Under the pieces are notes generated by a model that ran no database searches, was not told the DNA's origin, and worked only from the letters and a program-made list of their open reading frames with translations. This document shows, in pieces, positions 360 through 2,476 of a stretch of DNA of 5,142 nucleotides. The stretch lies in the IMG/VR virus record IMGVR_UViG_2671180669_000008. The stretch is one strand, 5' to 3'. This stretch comes from a virus. Taxonomy: Duplodnaviria > Heunggongvirae > Uroviricota > Caudoviricetes. Numbering within the stretch: the stretch's first letter is position 1; every line of letters starts with the position of its first letter. The position numbers and the translations under genes are program-made.

Positions 360-399
360 GACAGACCTGTGCTATCGGAAAGAAAAAAGGCCATCAGCA
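360..399. repeat. 40-bp perfect direct repeat, copy 2
   Basis: Identical to 58-97. Overlaps the T-tract and the 3' half of the terminator hairpin upstream of the holin. Confidence 0.9.
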
Positions 400-413
400 A
401 AACTCTGATGGCC
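381..413 (-). terminator. Intrinsic terminator upstream of the holin (minus strand)
   Basis: Perfect 9-bp stem ggccatcag / ctgatggcc (389-397 with 405-413), 7-nt loop, followed on the minus strand by TTTTTT (plus 383-388). Confidence 0.7.
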
Positions 414-458
414 TGAATCACCTTTACCAATATTGTATGAAAAAACACGCACGACTAA

Positions 459-487
459 TTGACAATAATTTTCATTTCCATTAAAAA
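459..487 (+). promoter_or_regulatory. Candidate sigma70 promoter on the plus strand (-35 TTGACA 459-464, 17-bp spacer, -10 TAAAAA 482-487)
   Basis: Perfect -35 hexamer with an AT-rich but weak -10. Points toward the hairpin/T-tract at 523-588. Pattern only. Confidence 0.2.
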
Positions 488-522
488 AGATCGCGTAGCA
501 TTCTTAATTCATGAGGAACTTT

Positions 523-588
523 ACCCGCCAGCAATCTGAGTAGCGAAAGCTGTTCATCCCCAATGTTTTTGCTGGCGGGTCCTTTTTT
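523..588 (+). terminator. Plus-strand terminator-like structure: 12-bp perfect stem, 34-nt loop, then T6
   Basis: acccgccagcaa (523-534) pairs with ttgctggcgggt (569-580); followed by ccTTTTTTct (583-588). Antisense to the phage late transcription direction. Confidence 0.3.
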
Positions 589-979
589 CTACGGTCCTCC
601 TCCCCGGAGGGGGGCATTTCATTATTTTTCTAATCGTTACTGGTGAGAAGGCGGAAGAAAAAGCCAGTTCTTCGCCCCTAAATAACAGCATGATTCCAGT
701 CCATGCAAAATCTGATTTCCAGCTCACACATACCGAGCGCTGTACAAAAAACCGCCAGCCAAGGCAGTTAAGAGTGTGTTCCCGGGGTTTGCTTAGAATA
801 TTTTGTAAGTTGTCCGAAGAGATATTTACAACACCAGAATGATGAATCATCAGTCCCCTGCCAGAGGTTCACTACGTAACCTGACCGACAATGCACCATT
901 CTGGTGCTGAAAAAAGAGCACTGGAACTGCAACAAAACAACATCACAGAACAGGAGATGGTAAGGAGTCAGACATTCCC

Positions 980-993
980 ACACAATATTGTGT
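980..993. promoter_or_regulatory. Perfect 14-bp palindrome acacaatattgtgt
   Basis: Self-complementary 14-mer, 35 nt downstream (minus direction) of the tRNA-Gly 3' end. Possible protein-binding site or RNA hairpin; no function assigned. Confidence 0.2.
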
Positions 994-1027
994 CAGTGCA
1001 AATAACAACCTTCGTCTCAAATCTCGC

Positions 1028-1102
1028 TGGAGCGGGCAGCGGGAATCGAACCCGCATCATCAGCTTGGAAGGCTGAGGTAATAGCCATTATACGATGCCC
1101 GC
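1028..1102 (-). tRNA. tRNA-Gly (anticodon UCC), CCA encoded
   Basis: Reverse complement GCGGGCATCGTATAATGGCTATTACCTCAGCCTTCCAAGCTGATGATGCGGGTTCGATTCCCGCTGCCCGCTCCA folds as a 75-nt cloverleaf with anticodon loop CTTCCAA. Matches my recollection of E. coli glyT. Confidence 0.9.
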
Positions 1103-1105
1103 ATA

Positions 1106-1181
1106 TGGTGCCGACTACCGGAATCGAACTGGTGACCTACTGATTACAAGTCAGTTGCTCTGCCTGCTGAGCTAAGTCGGC
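1106..1181 (-). tRNA. tRNA-Thr (anticodon UGU), CCA encoded
   Basis: Reverse complement GCCGACTTAGCTCAGCAGGCAGAGCAACTGACTTGTAATCAGTAGGTCACCAGTTCGATTCCGGTAGTCGGCACCA, 76 nt, anticodon loop CTTGTAA. Close to recalled thrU. Confidence 0.9.
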
Positions 1182-1183
1182 GC

Positions 1184-1260
1184 TGGCCCACCACCGAGGA
1201 CTCGAACCTCGCACCGTCAACTTAGAAGGTTGATGCTCTATCCGGATGAGCTAGTGGTGG
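1184..1260 (-). tRNA. tRNA-Arg (anticodon UCU), CCA encoded, atypical C1:G72 acceptor
   Basis: Reverse complement CCACCACTAGCTCATCCGGATAGAGCATCAACCTTCTAAGTTGACGGTGCGAGGTTCGAGTCCTCGGTGGTGGGCCA, 77 nt. Full cloverleaf: acceptor CCACCAC/GTGGTGG, anticodon stem TCAAC/GTTGA, loop CTTCTAA, T-arm CGAGG-TTCGAGT-CCTCG. Confidence 0.7.
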
Positions 1261-1261
1261 T

Positions 1262-1338
1262 TGGTGGCCCTTGCTGGACTTGAACCAGCGACCTGGCGAT
1301 TATGAGTCGCTCGCTCTGACCAACTGAGCTAAAGGGCC
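1262..1338 (-). tRNA. tRNA with CAU anticodon, Ile2 (lysidine)-like (ileX/ileZ type); elongator Met not excluded
   Basis: Reverse complement GGCCCTTTAGCTCAGTTGGTCAGAGCGAGCGACTCATAATCGCCAGGTCGCTGGTTCAAGTCCAGCAAGGGCCACCA, 77 nt, anticodon loop CTCATAA. T-arm matches recalled E. coli ileX. Confidence 0.85.
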
Positions 1339-1347
1339 GGAGGCAGA

Positions 1348-1376
1348 ATAATAACCATATGTCATCACATCTGCAA
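1348..1376 (-). promoter_or_regulatory. Candidate promoter for the tRNA cluster (-35 TTGCAG 1376-1371, 17-bp spacer, -10 TATTAT 1353-1348)
   Basis: Minus-strand hexamers placed so the predicted start falls 2-4 nt before the tRNA-Ile 5' end at 1338. Weak -35. Pattern only. Confidence 0.3.
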
Positions 1377-1423
1377 ACTCATCTGACCACCAGCACGTTT
1401 AACGTCCTGTGCCGTTTTTCAGG

Positions 1424-1452
1424 TATAAAAAAACCCGCTCATCGGCGGGTTT
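1424..1452 (-). terminator. Intrinsic terminator downstream of the ORF6N gene (minus strand)
   Basis: 8-bp stem aaacccgc / gcgggttt (1431-1438 with 1445-1452), 6-nt loop, followed on the minus strand by TTTTTTTAT. Confidence 0.7.
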
Positions 1453-1527
1453 AAGCTGTGTGGCGTAGTAACCACTCTTAACAGGATATTCAACTTTTTA
1501 CGATCGTAAAGTTTTCGGAAAAAATTT

Positions 1528-2091
1528 TTAAAACCGCATCAACCGCTCCACCAGTTGCTCTTTACGGGCAACGATCCACCCGTGTTGCTCCAGATAAAAT
1601 TTAAACCGTTCCAGAGTACATACCATCGCATCGGCGGGTACCTTTTCCGTGAACTCAACCTGACCGTGTTTATCGAAGTGGCTCAGTAATGCGCATCCAT
1701 CATTTTCGATAGATGTGTTTTGTGCCGCTGGTGGCTGTTTCTGGTTGAAATAACAGTCTTCCAGTTTTTCGAACACTTCCCACGCCTGATCGGTTTCGAG
1801 CATTTTGGCGTGACGGGCTGCGCCACGTTCTGTCCAGAGGATGAGGGAGCGAACGTTACGGGCAATTTTCACAGAAACTCTTAAAGAGTTTTCGTTCTTC
1901 AACTCTCGTAACGCATCACCTTCTATCAGGAAAAAATGTTTACCTTCTATAAACCGTTCTTTGTTTCGATTGAAATTGTTTGTCAAACGCTGGCGCTCTG
2001 TTCCGTACAAATCAGCCAGCAGCTCTGTTGTCATGACAGGAAGATGGTTATGCGTAAGTGACGGGAGTTTTTCAATAGACGTGCGATTCAT
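1528..2091 (-). CDS. ORF6N-domain protein (KilA-N-related phage regulatory / antirepressor-like moron), 187 aa
   Basis: Part of six-frame ORF 1528..2289. Start set at the ATG at 2091 (MNRTSIEK...), which has AAGGA 7 nt upstream; the 5' extension looks non-protein-like. N-terminal half (LYGTERQRLTNNFNRNKERFIEGKHFF...LWTERGAARHAKMLETDQAWEVF) matches the ORF6N pattern as I recall it. C-terminal half unassigned. Confidence 0.7.
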   Translation of the reverse strand: MNRTSIEKLPSLTHNHLPVMTTELLADLYGTERQRLTNNFNRNKERFIEGKHFFLIEGDALRELKNENSLRVSVKIARNVRSLILWTERGAARHAKMLETDQAWEVFEKLEDCYFNQKQPPAAQNTSIENDGCALLSHFDKHGQVEFTEKVPADAMVCTLERFKFYLEQHGWIVARKEQLVERLMRF

Positions 2092-2234
2092 AGACATGTC
2101 CTTTCGAATATTTTGATTTACCCCTTTTGAGAGGGTGACCGGGCGCTCAAAACCGTCGAAAGTCGGCGGGCGTATTTCCATTGCTGGTATTGTATTAGCC
2201 GCACACCCGGTCATAAACCAAGAATTCTGGACAC

Positions 2235-2262
2235 AAAAAAACCACATGGCTATCGGGTGTGG
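2235..2262 (-). terminator. Candidate intrinsic terminator in the ORF6N upstream region
   Basis: Minus strand CCACA-CCCGATAGCCA-TGTGG (5-bp stem, 11-nt loop) followed by TTTTTTT (plus 2235-2241). Confidence 0.4.
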
Positions 2263-2297
2263 ATACCGCTTTCGAGGTGTTTTGAGCACCGCGGGGA

Positions 2298-2326
2298 AAT
2301 GTAAACTGCAAACCTGAAACTGTCAA
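2298..2326 (-). promoter_or_regulatory. Candidate sigma70 promoter (-35 TTGACA 2326-2321, 17-bp spacer, -10 TACATT 2303-2298)
   Basis: Perfect -35 hexamer on the minus strand with a 4/6 -10. Lies between tR' and the 2235-2262 terminator. Pattern only. Confidence 0.3.
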
Positions 2327-2451
2327 CACCGTCAGGTTCCAATCATCGGGTGGTGAGACGCACAGGGTTGGAACTACCGGGAAACCGACCGGCGAGCTTT
2401 TCAGCTCCCCCATGCGCCCCACCATAATTCAGATGTGCGCGTGCATACGAC

Positions 2452-2476
2452 AATAAAAAACACGCTCGCGGCGTGT
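2452..2476 (-). terminator. Candidate tR' (intrinsic terminator downstream of pR')
   Basis: Minus-strand hairpin ACACGC-CGCGA-GCGTGT (6-bp stem, plus 2460-2476) followed by TTTTTTATTG. Confidence 0.6.

Follow-up and report, generated by a model that had tools for sequence, protein, structure and literature searches.

The window analysed here is the whole of a 5,142-nucleotide (nt) stretch of viral DNA (Caudoviricetes; IMG/VR record IMGVR_UViG_2671180669_000008), whose closest complete relatives are Escherichia coli prophages and Shiga toxin (Stx)-phage-like elements, and whose genes lie on the minus strand. We consider it likely that the part running from the antiterminator gene Q to the holin gene controls the late genes of a lambdoid E. 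coli prophage whose Q is of the QuuD type, and that two RNA switches stand there between Q and the late promoter PR'. PR' is probably located at 1510-1474 and the terminator that follows it (T3) is probably tR', as indicated by homology and by co-occurrence with the Q type, and the promoter next to Q reads as a switch promoter, not as the late promoter. The elements themselves, their conservation and covariation and their homology to annotated or mapped units are observed; how active the promoters are, how efficiently the terminators work and where Q acts in this prophage we infer. The minus-strand order would be Q, switch 1, switch 2 with an ORF6N-domain gene, PR'/T3, a tRNA unit, T5, T4 and holin, and the parts that bear on Q and its path are the following.

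2955-2572, minus strand: gene for the Q antiterminator, 127 amino acids (aa), QuuD type (Pfam PF06530, 176 bits)
2567-2538, minus strand: putative promoter PisrK, TTGACC, 18-nt spacer, TATATT (10/12 consensus positions)
2476-2455, minus strand: T1, inside the isrK RNA, stem 2476-2460 and T-run 2460-2455
2262-2235, minus strand: T2, at the end of the decoy leader, stem 2262-2258 / 2246-2242 and a run of seven T at 2241-2235
1510-1474, minus strand: probable Q-responsive PR', -35 TTTACG (1510-1505), 16-nt spacer, -10 TATCCT (1488-1483)
1510-1497, minus strand: dyad over the PR' -35, TTTACGATCGTAAA
1483-1474, minus strand: -10-like TGTTAAGAGT, candidate sigma-dependent pause element
1452-1427, minus strand: T3, read as tR', stem AAACCCGC/GCGGGTTT (1452-1431) and a run of seven T at 1433-1427
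769-744, minus strand: T5, inside the spacer downstream of the tRNA genes
414-383, minus strand: T4, a terminator predicted to be strong, some 35 nt ahead of the holin ATG
347-132, minus strand: gene for an S21-type holin (class II, pinholin-like; Pfam PF04971, 121.4 bits)

The probable PR' unit (1510-1427) lies 1066 nt (1.07 kb) beyond Q, after the ORF6N gene, and takes the form TTTACG(AT/TA)CGTAAA, TAnnnT, TGnTAAGAGT, short leader and terminator. Both the dyad TTTACGATCGTAAA and TGnTAAGAGT (1483-1474) are conserved across genera and are, to judge from their sequence, candidate pause or Q-binding elements; Q21 itself uses a direct repeat. We place PR' at 1510-1474 because of the equivalent units in other genera, in the K-12 prophage DLP12 and in VT2-Sakai, and because of the co-occurrence of the unit with one Q type. 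In Pantoea, Providencia, Erwinia and one further locus (L013) the TTTACG unit begins 13-55 nt past the Q stop, while it lies 1.5 kb from Q in Symbiopectobacterium and 2.8 kb from quuD in DLP12, just upstream of essD. VT2-Sakai has its counterpart of the window's PR'/T3 unit, with about 85% identity, at 20707-20789; this stretch comes immediately behind Q in that phage and carries the annotations 'putative late promoter', 'putative Q-utilization' and 'possible rho-independent terminator'. The PR' start of the Sakai Stx phages has been mapped near Q by differential RNA sequencing (dRNA-seq), the distance from that start to the mapped 3' end agrees with the annotated promoter, and PR' of Stx phages is constitutive and terminated early in the lysogen (PMC7547250). 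As for DLP12, the passage of PMC7918800 that cites Rueggeberg et al. 2013 reports its lysis operon to be under the control of its Q-type antiterminator. An initial reading of TGTTAAGAGT as the extended -10 of a promoter gave way to TTTACG-16-TATCCT, since TAnnnT does not vary between genera and the VT2-Sakai record annotates that promoter.

The co-occurrence separates two types of Q. Behind the 127-aa type lies the TTTACG unit in 55 of 58 loci, across at least eight genera-level lineages, and isrJ in none; behind the 225-aa type lies isrJ in 16 of 18 loci and the TTTACG unit in none. The isrK-C4 cassette is optional and occurs with either type; among loci of the 225-aa type it is present in five and absent from 11. 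IsrJ, as defined by Rfam, consists in these loci of a promoter (TTGCAA-17-TATATT), a 75-nt RNA and a terminator (L063:3064-3185, L082:3094-3172, L112 and ten others), and it starts 20 nt past the 225-aa Q stop in the 11 loci that lack the cassette and after the isrK-C4-antirepressor cassette in the other five. The likely start of the lysis genes was about 100 nt after isrJ in the one locus read for it (L063). By its position, IsrJ looks like the late-promoter leader of the 225-aa Q type. Our literature search found no statement that an isrK cassette lies between Q and PR', and a search for Term-seq data on essD returned nothing relevant.

The first-pass annotation of this stretch had instead taken the RNA ending at T1 for the late leader. 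Such a model, in which the promoter directly after Q (PisrK, 2567-2538) is PR' and Q must pass T1, T2, T3, T4 and the added T5 to reach the holin, we regard as quite improbable. PisrK adjoins Q, and T1, at +111 from the Q stop, is about as far from Q as the first terminator is in Pantoea (+107), Providencia (+84), Erwinia (+146) and L013 (+133); those terminators, however, belong to the TTTACG..CGTAAA unit, which in the window is 1510-1427. The PisrK-isrK-C4 segment (84-89% identical) is also found behind the different, 225-aa Q, and in L009 it lies 3 kb upstream of Q. Furthermore, Rfam describes c4-a1b1, which overlaps the isrK RNA, as 'a1, b1 targets of C4 antisense RNA', an RNA first described in phages P1 and P7, and the TTTACG unit is homologous both to the annotated late promoter of VT2-Sakai, with its mapped PR' start, and to the lysis-operon promoter region of DLP12. 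T1 thus ends an IsrK/a1b1 RNA whose promoter is common to the 127-aa and 225-aa Q types, and it does not hold as the terminator of a late leader. T1 and T2 would both lie off the path of Q, because Q most likely loads downstream of them, at PR'.

Several points weigh against our placing of PR' and tR'. PisrK occupies exactly the place expected for PR', its transcribed leader holds a -10-like CAAAAT at +8 to +13, and the StxS paper attributes IsrK to a promoter that it calls 'antitermination-regulated'. The 58 and 18 loci of the co-occurrence counts include many close relatives, so that the counts overstate the number of independent cases. The stable PR' RNA of Sakai (StxS-L) ends at +258, at a second terminator (PMC7547250); because this RNA runs on to +258, at least some polymerases must pass the Sakai homologue of T3 when Q is absent, and the score of T3 may overstate its strength. 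That score is a d value of the d'Aubenton-Carafa type, computed with ViennaRNA energies.

For the terminators themselves, chance was estimated from 40 dinucleotide shuffles of 350-2600. The minus strand of this interval held four positive-scoring sites and the plus strand none, compared with 0.05 +/- 0.22 per strand in the shuffles, and all four (T4, T3, T1 and T5) are intergenic and on the coding strand. A consensus scan gave 11 terminator-like sites against 5.0 +/- 2.2 in shuffles; it recovered 2476-2460, 1452-1431, 414-388 and 769-750, and did not recover T2 (2262-2235). The first-pass annotation had described four minus-strand terminators in series, T1 to T4, and a hairpin with a T-run is indeed present at each of these places; T1, T3 and T4 are stable and pass the score, but T2, at -3.2 kcal/mol, falls below the threshold and so fails the stability condition that the annotation itself had set. 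The list was also incomplete, as it lacked T5. A stable GC-rich hairpin followed by a T-run, as expected of an intrinsic terminator, is thus found at T1, T3, T4 and T5 and is lacking at T2, which has an 11-nt loop and d = -9.7.

The positive sites differ in strength and are conserved in different ways. T1 (2475-2461) has d = +7.7 and a free energy (dG) of -5.4 kcal/mol, or -14.3 in a wider context, and its stem varies on both arms among relatives (ACACGC/GCGTGT, AGACGC/GCGTCT, AGGCGC/GCGTCT). T3 (1449-1434) has d = +22.3 and dG -8.0; the leader from 1476 to 1424 folds at -18.3 kcal/mol (z = -3.25), the T3 stem is constant and its loop variable in 22 distinct relatives, and other genera have a terminator of unlike sequence in the same place. 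T5 (767-752) scores d = +6.6 with dG -6.9 (in context -10.7, z = -2.1), and its stem is kept in a 79%-identical relative, where a U-G pair becomes C-G. T4 (413-389) is the highest, with d = +32.7 and dG -15.1 (-18.5 in context). Hairpins of the T4 type with other loops and stems stand 39-46 nt before the holin start in relatives, and 51 of 77 loci with an S21-type holin have a positive-scoring terminator no more than 200 nt upstream. The distance of about 35 nt that was claimed between the end of the last terminator and the start of the holin gene agrees with the positions of the T4 T-run (388-383) and the holin ATG (347). In two relatives that are 97-100% identical (L021, 3089-3160; L027, 3026-3100), a clean 37-nt deletion removes the T3 hairpin and T-run and leaves the late promoter in place, so that they are natural variants without tR'.

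The non-coding stretch of about 470 nt between Q and the ORF6N gene, read on the minus (coding) strand, holds the two putative switches, with these parts.

2531-2455, minus strand: IsrK / c4-a1b1 leader RNA, which includes T1; target word b1 TTGGAAC at 2506-2500
2429-2346, minus strand: C4-type antisense RNA, word b' GTTCCAA at 2374-2368
2342-2336, minus strand: downstream C4 target b2, TTGGAAC
2326-2298, minus strand: putative promoter P2, TTGACA, 17-nt spacer, TACATT (10/12 consensus positions)
2291-2235, minus strand: putative decoy leader of the sRNA-Xcc1 switch, with hairpin GGTG-CTCAAAA-CACC, ending in T2
2287-2279 and 2275-2269, minus strand: decoy leader words a1 GCTCAAAAC and b1 TCGAAAG
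2212-2129, minus strand: sRNA-Xcc1 RNA, words b' CTTTCGA at 2162-2156 and a' GTTTTGAGC at 2153-2145
2116-2111 and 2107-2101, minus strand: a2 TCAAAA and b2 TCGAAAG, exact complements of Xcc1 a' and b'
2097-1528, minus strand: ORF6N-domain antirepressor-like gene, 189 aa (Pfam PF10543, 74.4 bits)

In switch 1, PisrK starts 5 nt after the Q stop, and its predicted 5' end (2531) is the first base of the Rfam isrK match (RF01394, model positions 1-77), which scores 77.5 bits against a gathering score of 50. The overlapping c4-a1b1 match (RF03163, model positions 1-53) lies at 2544-2492 and scores 50.1 bits against 46.7. Both the -35 and the -10 of PisrK are kept in relatives with a different Q gene. 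The IsrK leader has a minimum free energy (MFE) of -24.7 kcal/mol and the three hairpins of the Rfam model, and the C4 RNA (RF01695, 71 bits against 45) has an MFE of -44.9 kcal/mol with z = -5.0. Its word b' GTTCCAA is complementary to both b1 and b2, and the three words covary among relatives (TTGGCGT/ACGCCAA, TTAGCAC/GTGCTAA). The ATGs at 2425 and 2413 coincide with the +107 and +119 start codons of Gifsy-1 orf45, and the orf45-like frame (2425-2195) extends to 76 codons and is uncoupled from ORF6N. The C4 target b2 persists, but recombination has brought in the Xcc1 unit at about 2318 and so left b2 away from any ribosome-binding site; switch 1 may here be vestigial or active only on read-through transcripts.

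Most relatives have the ORF6N start about 50 nt directly after C4, while the window and a few others hold an extra 220 nt (2318-2098) that makes up switch 2. The sRNA-Xcc1 match (RF02221, model positions 1-87) scores 77.4 bits against a gathering score of 53, and the P2 hexamers (TTGACA with TACATT or TATAGT) are kept over a divergent spacer in L060, L064, L087 and the sRNA-Xcc1 units of other genera. The word b' of Xcc1 forms the loop of its second hairpin and is the exact complement of b1 in the leader and of b2 before ORF6N, which overlaps the Shine-Dalgarno sequence AAGGA of the gene; a' (GTTTTGAGC) matches the loop of the leader hairpin and the site between Xcc1 and b2. Among 14 units (locus L181 was left out of the word matching), b' matched its own leader over 7.0 nt and its own ribosome-binding site over 7.1 nt on average, compared with averages of 4.5 and 4.3 nt for other units, and at least 12 distinct b' words occur. 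From this pattern we read sRNA-Xcc1, which is listed as a stand-alone small RNA, as a C4-like antisense RNA, and T2 as the terminus of a decoy leader analogous to IsrK. Rfam keeps sRNA-Xcc1 outside the C4 clan, and no paper found in our literature search states that it is a C4-like switch with a terminated decoy leader. The only literature link found was a paper on APSE phages that remarks, without explanation, on Xcc1 upstream of an ORF6N gene; the EDL933 copy of Xcc1 has been described as abundant and low in ribosome coverage.

Two observations on the multiplicity of these units stand beside this. Locus L087 (2040-2500) has two full sRNA-Xcc1 units in tandem, each with promoter, decoy leader, T2-type hairpin and Xcc1, which differ in their words (CTCGAAA/TTTCGAG and CTTAACG/CGTTAAG in unit 1; GCTCAAAAC/GTTTTGAGC and CAGAAAG/CTTTCTG in unit 2). 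A single Symbiopectobacterium genome (G007; loci L178 and L181-L187) carries eight copies above the Rfam cut-off, and its readable copies have several distinct address words.

T2 was compared across 15 leaders of sRNA-Xcc1 units from E. coli, Providencia, Pantoea and Symbiopectobacterium. Its stem occurs in six sequence variants, among them CCACA/TGTGG, CCGCG/TGCGG, CCGCA/TGCGG, CCAAC/GTTGG and CCGTA/TGCGG; of the 14 leaders in which the hairpin was recognised, 13 form all five pairs and one forms four, and 14 of the 15 leaders conserve the loop CCCGAYAG and a run of five to seven T. A structural or processing element (an Hfq or RNase site, or a partner of the Xcc1 5' strand), past which P2 transcription would continue uninterrupted into Xcc1 and ORF6N, is a rather unlikely explanation of this hairpin, though one with several observations in its favour. 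T2 (2262-2242) has a stem of only 5 bp and an in-context z of +0.46 in addition to the low energy, long loop and negative score given above, a plain terminator has no need of a conserved loop, and the loop with its adjacent stem bases (CACCCGA, 2247-2260) is complementary to the 5' closing strand of Xcc1 (CCGGGTG, 2203-2212), as is similarly the case in other units. Against such an element stand the T-run directly after the hairpin and the covariation of the stem, and the terminator of the parallel IsrK leader has been shown experimentally to be partly read through (PMC4825925). The energy of T2 is nevertheless too low for us to be sure of any termination there, which counts against an attenuator, and T2 is better read, on its sequence features, as a weak, leaky attenuator than as a full terminator. 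If transcription reads through T2, the leader could interfere with the pairing of the closing stem of Xcc1.

We incline to the view that T2 is an attenuator of an RNA-switch class in which Xcc1 is C4-like and its words recur twice, in a decoy leader with its own terminator and over the antirepressor gene's ribosome-binding site, that the double cassette lies between Q and PR' with antirepressor transcripts and the late leader sharing T3, and that IsrJ, not IsrK, is the late-promoter leader of its Q type. T3 is accordingly read as ending the ORF6N transcripts too. The earlier suggestion that the accessory units have their own promoters is borne out by the conserved P2 of the Xcc1-ORF6N unit and by a conserved TTGCAG-17-TATTAT before the tRNA genes. 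The further suggestion that ORF6N is insulated is not simply so, as the antirepressor homologue of Gifsy-1 is transcribed by read-through of the IsrK terminator (PMC4825925).

Between T3 and the holin lie the tRNA unit and a spacer.

1376-1348, minus strand: putative tRNA promoter, TTGCAG (1376-1371), 17-nt spacer, TATTAT (1353-1348)
1338-1028, minus strand: four tRNA genes, in the order CAT, Arg-TCT, Thr-TGT, Gly-TCC (ARAGORN; Rfam tRNA 56-70 bits)
415-1027: spacer of 610 nt between the tRNA genes and T4

The tRNA promoter follows directly after T3. Many diverged relatives keep its hexamers while their spacers and upstream sequences vary, the VT2-Sakai record has a 'putative tRNA promoter' in the corresponding position, and a start site was mapped at this promoter in Sakai (PMC7547250). 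The CAT tRNA (1262-1338) is called Met by ARAGORN, and RefSeq labels it tRNA-Ile on relatives that are 99% identical (L001, L002), a label that implies a lysidine-type AUA reader like ileZ of Stx phages. The spacer (415-1027) occupies the slot of the toxin genes in Stx and LT-II phages, and its sole match in the phage collection is to the LT-IIb prophage KU052038, with 71% similarity over 177 nt. We treated it as non-coding, as its open reading frames (ORFs) span T5 or are short or odd and RefSeq relatives carry no annotation there. It also contains an imperfect inverted repeat of 31 nt (825-855 / 883-913) and, at 594-615 of the plus strand, a hairpin rich in GC.

Transcripts from the tRNA promoter, and any leakage past T3, would meet T5 and then the strong T4, and in the 35 nt that separate T4 from the ATG of the holin gene a consensus scan found no promoter-like site. 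The holin should therefore be insulated from the constitutive upstream promoters and need antiterminated transcription, because the coding-strand terminators are serial, no promoter follows T4 and the accessory units have promoters of their own. The dependence of the holin on antitermination in the first-pass annotation is thus reasonable, but the path would consist of T3, T5 and T4 and would not include T1 or T2.

Downstream of the holin, the lysis cassette is broken.

132-1, minus strand: endolysin stub and end of an insertion sequence (IS), of which only the first 12 codons are native

The endolysin aligns with intact rrrD-type genes only to codon 12 (132-97), where it is joined to a second copy of the T4 3' arm, a 40-nt repeat in which 58-97 and 360-399 are 100% identical. 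After the repeat come six T and then the terminal 51 nt of ISEc20, of the IS110 family (1-51), which are 100% identical to annotated ISEc20 ends; the window stops before the transposase gene. The fusion creates a terminator-like hairpin at 112-87 (d = +15.2). We judged an assembly artefact unlikely as the source of the 40-nt repeat, because the endolysin and the repeat share at most 3-4 nt at their junction, too little homology for an assembler to join. In two other viral contigs (L098, 1-60 and 1463-1500; L153, 105-145) an ISEc20 copy occupies the G-run that separates T4 from the holin start; it has GGGG on both sides and severs the holin from upstream transcription; the left junction equals that of the window, except that five G replace the six T.

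It is possible, if unlikely, that this region is a decaying remnant in which the path from Q to the holin no longer works and the terminators are inherited, not under present selection in this copy. The endolysin cut after codon 12, the loss of T3 from L021 and L027 and the ISEc20 insertions of L098 and L153 are what such decay would leave. Q, ORF6N, the tRNA genes and the holin are intact, however, and these are 100% identical to contigs with a full endolysin (L020, L025); as the window ends inside the IS, an intact lysis cassette could lie beyond.

The remaining genes of the window are upstream of Q.

4964-3573, minus strand: DnaB-type helicase gene
3319-2948, minus strand: 85-aa ORF and RusA gene

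Several gene products were assigned further. Q matches PHROG 79 ('anti-termination protein Q-like'), is 82% identical to QuuD of K-12 DLP12 and matches the Q21 structures 6P18/6JNX distantly (E = 3e-7). The ORF6N protein matches PHROG 2379 ('anti-repressor', 285.6 bits), and relatives of its gene sit at the anrP position in isrK...isrJ loci. The holin of RefSeq relatives carries the label 'class II holin family protein'.

In the mechanism that we propose for the late-control region, PisrK, P2, PR' and the tRNA promoter would all fire in the lysogen, and their transcripts would halt at T1, T2, T3 and T5/T4, respectively, with T1 and T2 probably acting as leaky attenuators. The words a' and b' of Xcc1 would pair with a2 and b2 across the ORF6N ribosome-binding site, so that both switches together would gate the antirepressor gene. 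Q would load only at PR', and since this is downstream of T1 and T2, these two would control the antirepressor and not lysis; antiterminated polymerase would then cross T3, T5 and T4 into the holin gene.

This layout is a variant of arrangements known from Stx phages, DLP12 and Gifsy-1, and its general logic is already known: serial terminators and a tRNA promoter from VT2-Sakai, a displaced PR' from DLP12, the IsrK switch from Gifsy-1 and C4 from P1. VT2-Sakai and 933W share with the window the PR', -10-like element and first hairpin (the ~85% identity above) and a downstream tRNA cluster with its own TTGCAG...TATTAT promoter, and the VT2-Sakai GenBank record annotates rho-independent terminators in series (20767, 20970 and 21426). 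In these phages PR' directly follows Q, whereas in the window a 1.07-kb switch and antirepressor cassette lies between the two. The window also lacks the ~200-nt StxS segment of Stx phages with its +258 terminator, has before the holin, instead of toxin genes, a 610-nt spacer with no credible ORF, and encodes a Q of the 127-aa QuuD type, compared with 157 aa in 933W. DLP12 (quuD - nmpC - essD/rrrD/rzpD) resembles the window in its Q, in a TTTACG..CGTAAA promoter unit with a T3-type terminator upstream of an S21-type holin gene and in having inserted cargo that separates Q from the late promoter. Its cargo is a porin gene on the opposite strand, however, while that of the window is a co-oriented antirepressor cassette with two RNA switches, and from PR' to the holin DLP12 has a single terminator (before essD) and the window three, plus the tRNA unit.

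Salmonella Gifsy-1 (antQ - isrK - orf45 - anrP - isrJ; Hershko-Shalev et al. 2016, PMC4825925) has the same series of Q, PisrK, IsrK, orf45/C4 and antirepressor-like gene, and likewise a short promoter-RNA-terminator unit just before the lysis genes. There, the 77-nt IsrK has a rho-independent terminator, and partial read-through transcribes the antirepressor gene (PMC4825925). Gifsy-1 differs from the window in its 225-aa Q type and in having isrJ instead of the TTTACG unit after the antirepressor gene, and it lacks the second switch (P2, decoy leader, T2 and sRNA-Xcc1) that the window has between C4 and the antirepressor gene; because this switch intervenes, orf45 is translationally uncoupled from the antirepressor here. 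The immI region of P1 and P7 (a1 b1 - c4 - a2 b2 - icd - ant) likewise has an antisense RNA between two copies of its target words, the downstream one of which lies where ribosomes bind the antirepressor operon. In the window, unlike immI, the upstream targets lie in separately terminated leader RNAs (T1, T2), a second switch is built on sRNA-Xcc1 and there is no icd-like gene.

The series of terminators reported by the first-pass annotation is textbook lambdoid logic, and a VT2-Sakai GenBank record now 25 years old already annotates such a series. What changes is the place of the late promoter: in prophages of the QuuD type the promoter adjacent to Q is not necessarily the late promoter, and here PR' probably lies about 1 kb further on. 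Annotators, and those who predict the expression of late cargo genes, would do better to find PR' by its own sequence than by its nearness to Q. The matching of words at three sites suggests that sRNA-Xcc1 belongs among the C4-like antirepressor switches. If it is true that the isrK cassette lies between Q and PR', then the late leader of Gifsy-type phages would be IsrJ and not IsrK.

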